Origin: Candidatus Nitrospira inopinata
Lineage (GTDB): Bacteria; Nitrospirota; Nitrospiria; Nitrospirales; Nitrospiraceae
DNA length: 32,000 nt
Direction: 5' to 3'
Assembly: GCF_001458695.1 (NCBI RefSeq)
Contig: NZ_LN885086.1
Span: forward strand, 1,200,001 to 1,232,000
Position 1 is the first letter of the stretch. Each line of letters begins with the position of its first letter. Made by a program: the position numbers and the translations under genes. The notes under the pieces are model-generated. The model did no database searches, was not told the origin of the DNA, and saw only the letters and a program-made list of their open reading frames with translations. This document shows, one piece after another, positions 6,286 to 12,710 of the stretch.

Positions 6286-7515
6286 TTAGTGATGGACGGC
6301 TCGTTCGTCGGTGATCCGACGGTTGAAGACCGCGGTCAGGGTCTCAATCAATTTGTCGATGTCCCGCTCCGTGATGATCAACGGTGGAACGAATCGTAGG
6401 ACCCGTTCGCCGGTTGCGTTGACGAGCACGCCTCGGTTGAGACAATCCGCGACGATCGCCTTGGCGTCGGTGTCCAGCTCCATGCCCTGCAAGAGGCCGA
6501 GTCCCCGGACTTCCCGCACGATTCGATGGCGATCCTTGCACTCCGTCAGTCCTTTCGCCAAATAGTCGCCCATCCGCCTGGCGTGATCCAAAACGGGTCC
6601 CTCGATGAGGGTTCGAAGAACGGTCAACCCCGCGGCGCACGCCAGCGGATTTCCTCCGAAAGTCGAGGCGTGGGAGCTGGGGGTAAAGGCCGCCGCGACC
6701 GATTCCGTCGCCAAACACGCTCCGATCGGCACCCCTCCGCCCAATCCCTTGGCCAGGGTCATGATGTCGGGCTCCACGCCCATCTGTTGGTACGCGAAGA
6801 GCGTTCCGGTGCGGCCCATGCCCGTTTGCACTTCGTCGAAAACGAGCAGGATATCGTGTTTCGTGCAGAACTCGCGGAGTTCACGCAGGTAGGCTCGATC
6901 GGCGACGTGCACGCCCCCCTCTCCTTGGATCGGCTCCAGCATGACGGCGGCGGTTTGCTTACCGGCTGCGGCCTCAATCGCCGAGAAATCGTTGAAGGGA
7001 ACGTATCGAAAGCCCGGCATCAGCGGCTCAAATCCCTTCTGGACTTTGTCTTGTCCGGTCGCCGTGATGGTCGCCAACGTTCTGCCGTGAAACGAGTTGT
7101 GCATGGTGATGACTTCAAATCGGTCCGCGCCGTACTTTTGGTGCGCGTAGCGCCGGGCCAATTTGATGGCGGCCTCGTTGGCCTCCGCCCCGCTGTTGCA
7201 GAAGAACACGCGGTCGGCGAAGGAATGTTCGACCAGCGTCTTTGCCAGGTGGATCTGCGGTTCCGTGTAGTAGAGGTTGGAGACGTGGATCAATTGCATG
7301 GCTTGCCGGTGAATCGCGTGGACGAGGTCCGGGTGCGTGTGGCCGAGGACGTTGACCGCGATTCCTCCGACGAAGTCGAGGTACTCCCGGCCTTCCAGAT
7401 CGTAGACTTTTACGCCTTTCCCTCGAGCGATCGAGATGGGTTGACGGCTATACGTCTGCATCAGATATTTGGCGGCGGCTTCTTTCAATTCTTCGGTCAG
7501 CATGGTCAACGACAT
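6286..7515 (-). CDS. argD: acetylornithine aminotransferase (class III PLP aminotransferase)
   Basis: 409 aa. FFCNSGAEANEAAIKLAR, LVFDEVQTGMGRTG and TLAKGLGGG (PLP lysine). First gene of the arg block. The start could instead be the second in-frame ATG at 7503. Confidence 0.9.
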   Translation of the reverse strand: MSLTMLTEELKEAAAKYLMQTYSRQPISIARGKGVKVYDLEGREYLDFVGGIAVNVLGHTHPDLVHAIHRQAMQLIHVSNLYYTEPQIHLAKTLVEHSFADRVFFCNSGAEANEAAIKLARRYAHQKYGADRFEVITMHNSFHGRTLATITATGQDKVQKGFEPLMPGFRYVPFNDFSAIEAAAGKQTAAVMLEPIQGEGGVHVADRAYLRELREFCTKHDILLVFDEVQTGMGRTGTLFAYQQMGVEPDIMTLAKGLGGGVPIGACLATESVAAAFTPSSHASTFGGNPLACAAGLTVLRTLIEGPVLDHARRMGDYLAKGLTECKDRHRIVREVRGLGLLQGMELDTDAKAIVADCLNRGVLVNATGERVLRFVPPLIITERDIDKLIETLTAVFNRRITDERAVHH

Positions 7516-9251: not shown

Positions 9252-9737
9252 TTATCCCGCCTCTTCCAGCAATTTGCCGTAGTGAGCCGCCGGCGCGTAG
9301 TCGATTAAAAGGACCAGCAATTTGTTGCGGTCTTCCTCGGACGAGAGGAAACCGTGATCCTCAATCAACGAAGCCGTTTCGGCGCTCACGGCCATGTGGC
9401 TCATGCCTTCATAATCGACTAAATACCCGTATCGGGCGCGCCGCTCTTCCAATTCTTGGAGATAGTCCTCCCAGGTGCCGCTTCCTATGAACCCCTTGTC
9501 CCACCAGGTCGCTTTGATTGAGCGCAGCAGCATCTCGCGAATCGCGGCGCGATAGCCGGGGGGGATATGGGCGTCGATGGCGGCCAGAATCCAGTAGAGG
9601 TTCAATGACAAAATTTCCCGCGAGATCAGGGAGAGGTCGGCCTCGGACACGGAAATGCCGTACTCATCGAGCTGCGTCGTTGTTAAGGGCGGCGGCATCA
9701 TCCGGAGAAGAGCGGCCGCGGCTTCAGCGGGCGTCAT
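9252..9737 (-). CDS. hypothetical cytoplasmic protein, no family recognised
   Basis: Start trimmed to ATG 9737 ([11 protein letters not shown]...). About 161 aa, predicted helical, with no signal peptide or TM segment. Coding-like GC3 composition. Divergent from ttcA. Confidence 0.55.
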
Positions 9738-9893
9738 CGTTCCATTGACCCCTTGGTCCAGTATTATGATGCGCGAGGATACTGCGACGCTCGTCCACAC
9801 TCAAGCGGGCGACGGTTCACTGTTCTCTATAGCCGCCGACGGGGAAGACGGCCGTCATCGACAGCGGGCCGTCGGGACAGGTACAATCGCGCC

Positions 9894-10778: not shown

Positions 10779-11058
10779 GTGATAGAGCGTCCGCGGCCGG
10801 CACCGAATAGCCGGCCCTGCTTACCCCGACGTGTCGACCTCGGTTCGTCATTGCATGACCGTTGGTCATAACTACGAGTACGGTCAGGGTGCGCATGGTC
10901 CGAGTTTTTTGCCATGGCCGGCCTTGACGAAACGGGGTTTATCGAGTTGAATGTTAAAAAAGAGGCGGCCGGGGCAAGGTTCCTGGCGTCTTTCGGCTGG
11001 AGGGAGAAGGACGGATCGTTCAATCGTTCATAAGTCTTCACCGGGGGAGGTAAGAGAC

Positions 11059-11616
11059 ATGGTCGCATTCTCGGTTGTATTTATTCTCGTGGCCGCGCTC
11101 TTCCCGGGCGTCGCGGCAGCTCATGGTAATGTGGCGTTGGAAGACGATATCTGCGTGCGACGGGTGGGCGGCAATCTGGTCCATTTTAACGCGTATCAGC
11201 CTCAGCATGAGGCCAAGGCTCAATACTGTACGGAGATTCCCGGCGAAGGCGATACGTTTTTGGTGCTCGATCTGGTGGATCCGGTGTTGCGCACCTTGCC
11301 GGTGGGGGTTCGCGTGGTCAGAGGCACCGACGGGCTATCGGAGGAGCAGACGGTGGCCTATTGGCCTCCGGTCACTCATCCGGACGGCGTGCTTCGAGGG
11401 GAGGCAAATTTGAGCAAGGGGCTGTACACGTTCGTCATCATGCCGGAGGGATTCAGCCATTCGTCGTATCTGCTGCGGGTGCAGCAAGCGGATTATGGGA
11501 AGATCTCACAAAAGGCGGTGGGCCCTCTCATGATTCTCCTGCTCCTTGCGTTGATCGGGTATGAAATCTCGAAGTCGAGACGGTGGGGAGGTCGGAGGGC
11601 GCCGGGCCGGTCGTAA
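11059..11616 (+). CDS. secreted, C-terminally membrane-anchored protein, possible PmoD/AmoD-like cupredoxin protein
   Basis: GGGGGAGG SD then ATG 11059. Signal peptide MVAFSVVFILVAALFPGVAAA|HGN. About 130 aa mixed-composition domain (beta-rich is my guess) with two Cys. C-terminal TM helix GPLMILLLLALIGY followed by a basic tail. C32-x7-L40-x-H42 resembles the PmoD Cx7MxH motif as I recall it. Lies immediately upstream of amoC. The CDS call is solid. The family assignment is tentative. Confidence 0.6.
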   Translation: MVAFSVVFILVAALFPGVAAAHGNVALEDDICVRRVGGNLVHFNAYQPQHEAKAQYCTEIPGEGDTFLVLDLVDPVLRTLPVGVRVVRGTDGLSEEQTVAYWPPVTHPDGVLRGEANLSKGLYTFVIMPEGFSHSSYLLRVQQADYGKISQKAVGPLMILLLLALIGYEISKSRRWGGRRAPGRS

Positions 11617-11671
11617 CGGCCACATATGAGAATGCGGAGGCATGTTATCTTTCTACAAGGAGGGATTCATT

Positions 11672-12481
11672 ATGGCGGCAGAGCGGGGCTATGACATTTC
11701 GCAGTGGTATGATTCGCGGCCGTGGAAGATTGGGTGGTTTGCGATGTTGGCGATTGGGATTTTTTGGGTATTGTATCAGCGGACGTTTGGGTATTCGCAC
11801 GGGTTGGACTCGATGACGCCGGAGTTTGACGCGGTGTGGATGGGGTTGTGGCGGTTTAACATTGTGGCCAATGCGTTATTTTTTGCGATTGCGGTGGGGT
11901 GGATTTGGGTGACGCGGGATCGGAATTTGGCGAATTTGGATCCGAAGACGGAGTTGAAGCGGTATTTTTACTGGATGGGGTGGTTGGCCTGCTATGTGTG
12001 GGGGGTCTATTATGCGGGCAGTTACACATTGGAGCAGGATGCGGCGTGGCATCAGGTGATCATTCGGGACACGAGTTTTACGGCGAGTCACATTGTGGCG
12101 TTTTACGGGACATTCCCGTTGTACATTACGTGCGGGGTGTCGAGTTATCTGTATGCGCAGACGCGGTTACCGTTGTATAGCCAGGCGACGTCGTTTCCGT
12201 TGGTGGCGGCGGTGGTGGGGCCGATGTTCATCTTACCGAACGTGGGGCTCAATGAGTGGGGCCATGCGTTTTGGTTTGTGGACGAGTTGTTTGCGGCGCC
12301 GTTGCATTGGGGCTTTGTGACGTTGGGCTGGTGCGGGTTGTTTGGGGCGGCGGGCGGCGTGGCGGCGCAGATTGTGAGCCGCATGTCGAACTTGGCGGAT
12401 GTGATTTGGAACGGGGCGCCCAAGAGCATCCTGGATCCGTTCCCCAGCCAGGTCAACCCCAACGCCAAAGCAGGATACTGA
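11672..12481 (+). CDS. amoC: ammonia/methane monooxygenase subunit C family protein, stand-alone copy
   Basis: AAGGAGGG SD then ATG 11672. Reads [46 protein letters not shown]...[14 protein letters not shown]...[29 protein letters not shown], which are hallmark AmoC/PmoC blocks including the metal-site D/H/H region. No amoA or amoB within the window. Confidence 0.92.
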
Positions 12482-12510
12482 GGACTGACGGGCGAGCGCG
12501 TGGAACGAAC

Positions 12511-12551
12511 GGGGGCTGTGCCGGTGAAGGCACAGCCCCCGTTTCTTTTTT
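12511..12551 (+). terminator. rho-independent terminator after amoC
   Basis: Perfect 12-bp GC-rich stem GGGGGCTGTGCC / GGCACAGCCCCC (12511-12522 and 12529-12540), 6-nt loop, followed by GTTTCTTTTTT. Confidence 0.8.
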
Positions 12552-12633
12552 GAGGACGACGAAGGATTTCGTTCGGTATCGGATGAATGGAGAAGATTTG
12601 GAGTTATGAAAAGAGATGTCAAAAGAGAGGCGT

Positions 12634-12710
<77 letters not shown>

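Follow-up and report, generated by a model that had tools for sequence, protein, structure and literature searches.

What does a small, membrane-anchored protein of the PmoD/AmoD/AmoE family do beside a spare copy of the gene for one subunit of ammonia monooxygenase (AMO)? The question is raised by a 32,000-nucleotide stretch of the genome of Candidatus Nitrospira inopinata (contig NZ_LN885086.1, positions 1,200,001 to 1,232,000; hereafter the window, in whose own numbering its positions are given). Here such a gene, publicly annotated as "hypothetical protein" and encoding a protein that is also present unchanged in assembly GCA_001458755.1, lies just upstream of a lone amoC. The outcome specific to this analysis is a derived, amoC-linked clade, carrying Leu where relatives carry a Met copper ligand, inside the AmoE lineage of complete ammonia oxidizers (comammox). 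It is a new subgroup and not a new kind of protein, and it may already carry a name in the comammox genome papers.

In methane and ammonia oxidation, the PmoD/AmoD/AmoE proteins still lack an agreed function. Knockout of pmoD impaired copper-dependent growth, and no role in particulate methane monooxygenase (pMMO) or AMO has been pinned down. According to a 2026 review of AMO, the active site at which the product forms may lie in AmoC. Earlier publications already cover the family with its motif classes, its confinement to methane and ammonia oxidizers and its occasional pairing with a lone pmoC or amoC, and the window gene itself is an expected family member that comes as no surprise. The value of the locus is that of a natural experiment in a cultivated complete nitrifier, with a duplicate of AmoE, an exchange of the CuA Met for Leu, and apparent co-transcription with a spare AmoC.

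Family membership and anatomy

The window gene almost certainly encodes a member of the PmoD/AmoD/AmoE family. No model for this family was found in Pfam or NCBIfam, which matches the statement of Fisher et al. 2018 (PMC6189053) that none existed. A search of the PDB sequences matched PmoD (6CPD; E 1.3e-8 with phmmer, 1.1e-9 with an hmmsearch profile). An AlphaFold2 (AF2) model built from a diverse alignment of 56 sequences had a predicted local distance difference test score (pLDDT) of 91.7, and its best Foldseek matches in the PDB were the two chains of the same structure, 6cpd_A and 6cpd_B (E 1.6e-10, probability 1.0). The match covered the whole soluble domain (124-125 columns, target-normalised template modelling score 0.76-0.77, root-mean-square deviation 2.3-2.7 Å). 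An earlier AF2 model, from 45 close homologues only, had a pLDDT of 60.9, and its fold matches were meaningless. C32, L40 and H42 occupy exactly the columns of PmoD Cys41, Met49 and His51, and C57 aligns with Cys65. The PmoD/AmoD architecture put forward in the initial annotation is thus matched by HMMER and Foldseek alike, and the three residues that it singled out are in register with the PmoD ligands.

The elements of the gene and its product are:

11059-11616 (+): ORF (open reading frame) of 185 aa, its start shared with independent gene callers on public assemblies
11046-11050 (+): Shine-Dalgarno sequence GGAGG, 8 nt before the ATG at 11059, by direct reading of the sequence
11059-11121 (+): signal-peptide-like segment, residues 1-21, ending P-G-V-A-A-A, recognized by its hydrophobic core and by conservation among homologues
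11122-11124 (+): His22, codon CAT, the predicted first mature residue
11122-11508 (+): periplasmic cupredoxin-like PmoD/AmoE domain, residues 22 to ~150, from the AF2 model, Foldseek and HMMER
11152-11184 (+): ligand motif C32-x7-L40-x-H42, aligned residue for residue with PmoD CmvmfgydMiH
11152-11154, 11176-11178 and 11182-11184 (+): codons of C32, L40 (CTG) and H42 (CAT)
11227-11229 (+): Cys57, the second invariant Cys and counterpart of PmoD Cys65
11515-11565 (+): C-terminal transmembrane helix, residues ~153-169, hydrophobic run AVGPLMILLLLALIGYE; residues 146-177 are helical in the AF2 model
11566-11616 (+): basic tail (ISKSRRWGGRRAPGRS) and stop codon, read from the sequence; probably on the cytoplasmic side

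The protein thus shows the traits by which the family is recognized: a signal peptide (by sequence rules), a cupredoxin-like domain, two invariant Cys, a C-terminal transmembrane helix and a setting among genes for copper membrane monooxygenases (CuMMOs). Its N-terminus reads MVAFSVVFILVAALFPGVAAA|HGN, with Pro at -6, Ala at -3 and -1 and no basic residue in the n-region; Pro16 and Ala21 are invariant among its homologues and Ala19 is nearly so. The two Cys, C32 and C57, are the only ones in the protein. The tail that follows the hydrophobic segment, KSRRWGGRRAPGRS, holds five Arg and one Lys and would therefore lie in the cytoplasm under the positive-inside rule. Every part of this anatomy, from the signal-peptide-like N-terminus ending AAA|H22 to the two Cys, the transmembrane helix and the basic tail, lies where the initial annotation had placed it.

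The ORF is not a chance one, given 1503 homologues at E <= 1e-3 and the residues that do not vary among them: H22, C32, H42 and C57 are invariant in the 120 best homologues, and L40 is found in 116 of these. Among 45 homologues reaching down to 67% identity, 62 positions are invariant, every candidate ligand included. We rejected a start at the upstream ATG at 10951, from which a protein of 221 aa would result. This ATG lacks a Shine-Dalgarno sequence and overlaps a conserved -10-like element, the residues that it would add are hydrophilic and do not resemble the extensions of homologues, and gene callers choose 11059.

Most homologues outside the lineage of the window protein, which has no such extension, are ~220 aa long and carry a conserved N-terminal extension of ~35 aa (P0008, P0011, P0048 and others; also L009, 5836-6552). 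The extension, which precedes the signal-like segment and an AGA|HG junction, has a hydrophobic segment of its own and a loop rich in basic residues (MTTMFLAVVALSVVAGVM.R..W.VR.VR..Q..RSHR). If translated and cleaved, it would leave a small two-helix membrane peptide.

When 185,579 species genomes were scanned, 228 relatives emerged, from which 80 loci were kept, all of them named Nitrospira, Nitrospiraceae, Nitrospirota or Nitrosospira; the close homologues all bear the name Nitrospira. These names agree with the proposed restriction to ammonia and methane oxidizers, as does the finding of Fisher et al. 2018 (PMC6189053) that 98.5% of the family occurs in CuMMO-encoding species. In profile and structural similarity, ligand register, N-terminus and spread of homologues, nothing that we found contradicts the initial annotation.

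Leucine at the ligand position

In PmoD, Cys41, Met49 and His51 are the ligands of a dimeric CuA site, which is lost in each of the variants C41S, M49A and H51A; Cys65 is invariant but not a CuA ligand, and a Cys41-Cys65 disulfide is present in the crystal (Fisher et al. 2018, PMC6189053). The same study divided the family into the classes Cx7MxHxnC (23.6%), Cx8MHxnC (13.4%), Cx8MxnC (7.9%), Cx9HxnC (22.2%) and CxnC only (29%). All family members tested in vitro bound copper. Cx9HxnC and CxnC homologues did so without CuA features, which were absent from every non-Cx7MxH homologue tested. CuA formation by PmoD was itself shown in vitro only, and the authors left its physiological relevance open.

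The window motif, C32-VRRVGGNLV-H42...C57, has no Met at +8 or +9 from the first Cys and so falls into the Cx9HxnC class. It keeps the register of the CuA subclass (AmoE, and PmoD of alphaproteobacterial methane-oxidizing bacteria), with Cys at 0 and His at +10, and departs from it at +8, where the Met of that subclass is replaced by Leu40. An exhaustive profile search at E <= 1e-3 gave 615 clusters (50% identity). Of 121 representatives with an intact core, 24 have Leu at +8, 19 have Met and 13 have Val. Cx7LxH is therefore not a new motif, Leu being the commonest residue at this position among the representatives. The initial annotation, which had called it a variant, was right that the spacing is kept and Met replaced by Leu, but the motif belongs to a published class. 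Two Leu-type representatives sit directly after amoB/pmoB in CuMMO operons. At L089 (223-2615), a CuMMO operon includes a gene of 111 aa between amoA (PF02461) and amoB (PF04744), followed by a Leu-type PmoD homologue.

Across loci Leu40 is encoded by six different Leu codons, a synonymous variation which shows that Leu itself is kept by selection. Such a residue could serve a dimeric Cys2His2 center that remains CuA-like, in which a non-coordinating axial Leu raises the reduction potential; the protein would then transfer electrons as a redox-tuned partner of AMO, and might also do so in a heterodimer with the Met-type AmoE. Natural axial Met-to-Leu exchanges tune the potentials of cupredoxins. 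Here neither the bridging Cys nor the His ligand varies, both keep the register, the surroundings are nearly identical to those of the Met-type paralogue described below, and Leu is under selection and not drifting. We nevertheless regard this explanation as unlikely in view of the loss of CuA in PmoD M49A, the missing CuA features of all non-Cx7MxH homologues tested in vitro, and the status of the PmoD CuA site itself, seen in vitro only and with its relevance left open.

The Met-type protein encoded at L019 (5866-6552) shares 68% identity with the window protein, and the sole difference in its core is Met for Leu (ligand region CVRRVGGNLVHFNAYQPQ in the window protein and CVRRIGGNMVHFNAYQPQ in L019). 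Its gene belongs to the main amo cluster, where two PmoD-like genes, copC, copD and amoC come after it; at L065 and L070, as at L019, a Met-type gene precedes further PmoD-like paralogues. We take the gene that opens the pmoD-like trio of this cluster to be the one called amoE in comammox genomes. Both types occur in single genomes (L059 with L069, L056 with L071, and L024 with L019). In a rough neighbor-joining (NJ) tree, which carries no support values, the Leu-type genes form one clade, sister to the Met-type genes of the comammox cluster, and the other Met-type genes and a Val/Ala-type group fall outside these two. This placement suggests that Met is probably ancestral and that the Leu clade probably arose by duplication of the cluster gene. 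Judged by this rough tree, the window gene appears to be a comammox-Nitrospira paralogue of the Met-type gene of the amo cluster.

The Val/Ala-type genes (Val40 in L075, L077, L079 and L080; Ala in L076) belong to a distant Nitrospiraceae subgroup with 54-57% identity and no amoC downstream; at L077 a divergent amoC (78% identity) lies ~1.5 kb upstream of the Val-type gene. The nearest homologue from betaproteobacterial ammonia oxidizers (Nitrosospira, 54% identity) had been assumed to be an operon amoE but is actually a lone gene. It is found in Nitrosospira metagenome-assembled genomes (MAGs; L078, 2983-3564, and L074) among unrelated genes, and a one-residue insertion turns its motif into C-x8-M-x-H.

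Pairing with amoC

An amoC gene begins 45-98 nt downstream in 47 of the 52 informative Leu-type loci, that is, those with enough downstream sequence, and within 100 nt in none of the 7 informative Met-type loci among the 80 genome loci. The idea of a two-gene module thus gains support from its recurrence, although the pairing is not constant, with exceptions at L024, L041 and L050. In the window itself, the amoC reported 55 nt downstream is confirmed by Pfam and NCBIfam. Since amoA, copC and copD were not found in the window (amoB was not searched for), it is an orphan copy as far as tested. The module comprises, besides the gene described above:

10924-10952 (+): candidate sigma-70-type promoter, TTGACG-17 nt-TTGAAT, proposed from consensus and conservation only
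11617-11671 (+): spacer of 55 nt, with the amoC Shine-Dalgarno sequence GGAGG at 11659-11663, 8 nt before amoC
11672-12481 (+): amoC, 269 aa (Pfam AmoC, 1.6e-105; NCBIfam AmoC_BACT, 340.8 bits, cut-off 319)
12507-12553 (+): intrinsic terminator with a 16-bp stem (11 G-C pairs), a 6-nt loop and CTTTTTT
12634-12710 (-): tRNA-Met (ARAGORN), the downstream boundary of the module

We infer that the pmoD-like gene and amoC form one transcription unit, because a promoter-like element lies upstream, the 55-nt spacer is free of terminators and a strong terminator follows amoC. The element TTGAC[GA]-N17-TTGAAT is kept in 11 loci with the ttcA...fmt synteny, where the flanking intergenic DNA has diverged; a stricter promoter scan did not list the element at 10924-10952. 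No terminator or attenuator was found in the 55-nt spacer, which has no T-run and only a modest hairpin over the amoC Shine-Dalgarno sequence (z = -2.25). Across 45 loci the spacer measures 38-85 nt and has a conserved end, ...TAACAAGGAGG, and its likeness to the region upstream of the cluster amoC is confined to ~20 nt around the Shine-Dalgarno sequence. Such a short spacer with so little likeness suggests that the extra amoC has no obvious promoter of its own.

Many loci keep a GCGGAGG box (11633-11639 in the window) ~25-30 nt upstream of the amoC Shine-Dalgarno sequence. An alternative in-frame ATG follows the box in the window, at 11642, but is not conserved at other loci. An ORF of 39 aa called by gene callers at 10914-11033 (+) overlaps the candidate promoter and is probably spurious.

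Where comparison was possible, in other genomes, the amoC that follows the Leu-type gene is 91-99.6% identical in DNA and 94.5-100% in protein to the cluster amoC of the same genome. More than 30 MAGs (L001-L007, L010-L015 and many others) have contigs that break off within amoC, 130-400 nt past the pmoD-like gene. Short-read assemblies evidently break at near-identical amoC copies, so counts of amoC and of the gene pair in MAGs are underestimates. In some Nitrospira genomes (L009, 1127-5725, and L069, 5123-10977), a response regulator gene is followed in turn by amoC, amoA and a gene for an FtsH-like protease, with no adjacent amoB; at L009 the ftsH-like gene precedes the Leu-type gene and another amoC. 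At L049 the full gene and a fragmented amoC are separated by a partial second pmoD-like copy (6663-6938; 65% identity to residues 94-185), which reflects either duplication in place or an artefact of assembly.

At the three exceptional loci (L050, 2270-2494; L041, 979-1203; L024, 6540-7423) the order is ttcA, pmoD-like gene, tRNA-Met (-), fmt and rsmB, with no amoC. The tRNA-Met was found directly after the pmoD-like gene in L050 and L041, and ARAGORN found no tRNA in L024. As the synteny is shared without amoC, the gene was either lost at these loci or inserted in the other lineages. In the tree, the three share a sub-clade with L072, where the pmoD-like gene is cut off by the end of the contig. 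Conversely, some genomes hold amoC copies with no pmoD-like gene.

This uneven co-occurrence, together with the lost Met ligand and the absence of any PmoD-family protein from the cryo-electron microscopy maps of AMO and pMMO (2026 review), would fit a protein with no copper role at all, whether a structural or membrane-organizing partner of AmoC or a drifting duplicate. The strong purifying selection seen in the 62 invariant positions, the synonymous changes of the Leu codon and the copper binding of all family members tested in vitro make this explanation very improbable.

The other neighbors of the module in the window are housekeeping genes (a PP-loop ATPase gene, fmt, rsmB and pheST). An ORF of 182 aa at 9252-9800 (-), given as 161 aa in public assemblies and belonging to no Pfam family, lies between a histidine phosphatase gene and the PP-loop ATPase gene.

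The predicted N-terminal histidine, a possible mechanism and known systems

Cleavage at the predicted site would leave His22 as the first residue. It is invariant in 120 of 120 close homologues, and its codon is CAT at some loci and CAC at others. Of the 121 representatives, 111 (~92%) have a His ahead of the first Cys, and in 101 of these 111 it stands exactly 10 residues before that Cys; several of the 10 apparent exceptions are detection errors. The junction before it has Ala (98) or Gly (12) at -1, and Ala, Val or Leu at -3 in 104 of the 111. In the diverse alignment, H22, G23, D30 and H42 are at least 90% conserved, and C32 and C57 are invariant. The cleavage proposed in the initial annotation is thus in keeping with sequence rules, the N-terminus obeying the AxA rule and the AxA|HG junction being kept family-wide, and the predicted N-terminal His would be a trait of the family and not special to the window gene.

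A like junction, AFA|HGE, is found in the AmoB/PmoB proteins whose genes neighbor those of two family members. The N-terminal His of PmoB is an established ligand of the CuB histidine brace. By analogy, the window protein could hold copper at a mononuclear brace-type site made of the His22 amine and imidazole and His42, with Cys32-Cys57 as a structural disulfide, and act as a periplasmic copper chaperone for AmoC or AmoB. The fixed spacing between His and the first Cys, the signal-peptidase site before it in most representatives, its conservation together with Gly23, Asp30 and His42, and the disulfide in the PmoD crystal are all consistent with such a site. All published PmoD-family constructs carry an extra Ser-Met at the N-terminus, which would block brace formation, and the 2026 review of AMO does not mention a histidine brace for PmoD-family proteins. 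The subfamily of the crystallized PmoD is an exception: its close relatives lack the His and have a Met-rich N-terminus instead, so the trait is not universal, and elsewhere the His may be conserved for processing or for another role. We consider a brace in the window protein possible but doubtful. Equally tentative is the broader suggestion that the conserved site in most of the AmoD/AmoE/PmoD superfamily is brace-like (H-x9-C-x9-H), with the Cys in a disulfide and not in a CuA dimer, and that the Leu-type protein is a chaperone loading new AmoC.

The idea that the crystallized PmoD construct had lost a conserved N-terminal His was rejected, as its close relatives read ...FAHA|EGGAGPEAMSMGNMC or are without the His.

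Our preferred explanation, which we hold to be reasonably probable as a whole, mechanism included, is that the protein handles copper for AMO. It would be exported by Sec and cleaved at A21|H22, as predicted, which would leave a periplasmic domain tethered by the C-terminal helix. The gene and amoC would be transcribed together. By analogy with studied homologues, copper would be held at a mononuclear Cys/His site near the N-terminus and not in a dimeric CuA site, and the protein would serve as a copper-handling or assembly partner of AMO, specifically of the AmoC made from the same transcript. The family invariants His22, Asp30, Cys32, His42 and Cys57 are all retained. A mononuclear site is suggested because PmoD M49A loses CuA and because a Cx9HxnC homologue binds copper without forming CuA. 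Such a partner of AMO is more likely than a general electron carrier.

Several points weigh against this explanation. The loci L024, L041 and L050 hold the Leu-type gene at the same place without amoC, and the Met-type P0112, from outside the 80-locus set, sits 52 nt upstream of an amoC. Because Leu-type genes also directly follow amoB/pmoB elsewhere, Leu is not a signature of an AmoC-specific role; on these three counts, a strict tie between Leu and amoC adjacency was ruled out. Copper binding, cleavage, co-transcription and contact with AmoC are all steps that we infer here. In other cupredoxin and CuA sites, exchange of the axial Met for Leu generally keeps the site and shifts its potential. 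Since Leu is not Ala, a CuA-like center is thus conceivable. In addition, the Cx9H protein studied in vitro is only distantly related and comes from another genomic context, near copC (PMC6189053). Nonetheless, the adjacency of Leu-type genes and amoC and the conserved predicted N-terminal His make specific experiments possible.

Among known systems, PmoD of Methylocystis sp. Rockwell (Met49242_1452, 6CPD) resembles the window protein in its signal peptide, cupredoxin-like domain, transmembrane helix, two Cys and CuMMO neighbor. However, the two are only 24% identical in the structural alignment, and the window protein has Leu40 for Met49 and lacks the Met-rich stretch at the first Cys (MSMGNMCMVM). 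Its predicted N-terminal His is missing from close relatives of PmoD, whose gene follows pmoCAB, whereas the window gene is paired with a lone amoC.

Far closer are the AmoE/orf4-type proteins (Cx7MxHxnC), which comprise AmoE of betaproteobacterial ammonia oxidizers and the comammox cluster proteins, among them the L019 protein at 68% identity. They share with the window protein the core CVRR[VI]GGN-x-VHFNAYQPQ, the AAA|HG junction, the architecture and the length. The window gene differs in having Leu for Met, in being followed by amoC and not by amoD1, amoD2, copC and copD, and in belonging to its own NJ clade. With the Cx9HxnC class (tested example MettrDRAFT_0370) it has the same formal motif, C32-x9-H42...C57, but that published class is often found near copC, whereas the window clade arose within the AmoE lineage and has its link to amoC. 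The predicted mature His-Gly after an AxA site recalls the histidine-brace proteins (the CuB site of PmoB/AmoB, CopC, and lytic polysaccharide monooxygenases), a likeness in sequence within a different fold context.

Some pmoD homologues near lone pmoC genes, and some in Nitrospirae, were already reported by Fisher et al. 2018 (PMC6189053). The amoC beside the window gene also has a parallel in amoC3 of Nitrosomonas europaea, a copy used in recovery from stress and starvation, as both are extra amoC genes outside amoCAB. Yet amoC3 is divergent (67.5% identity), whereas the extra amoC described here is near-identical to the cluster copies and, unlike amoC3, appears to depend for its promoter on the pmoD-like gene upstream.

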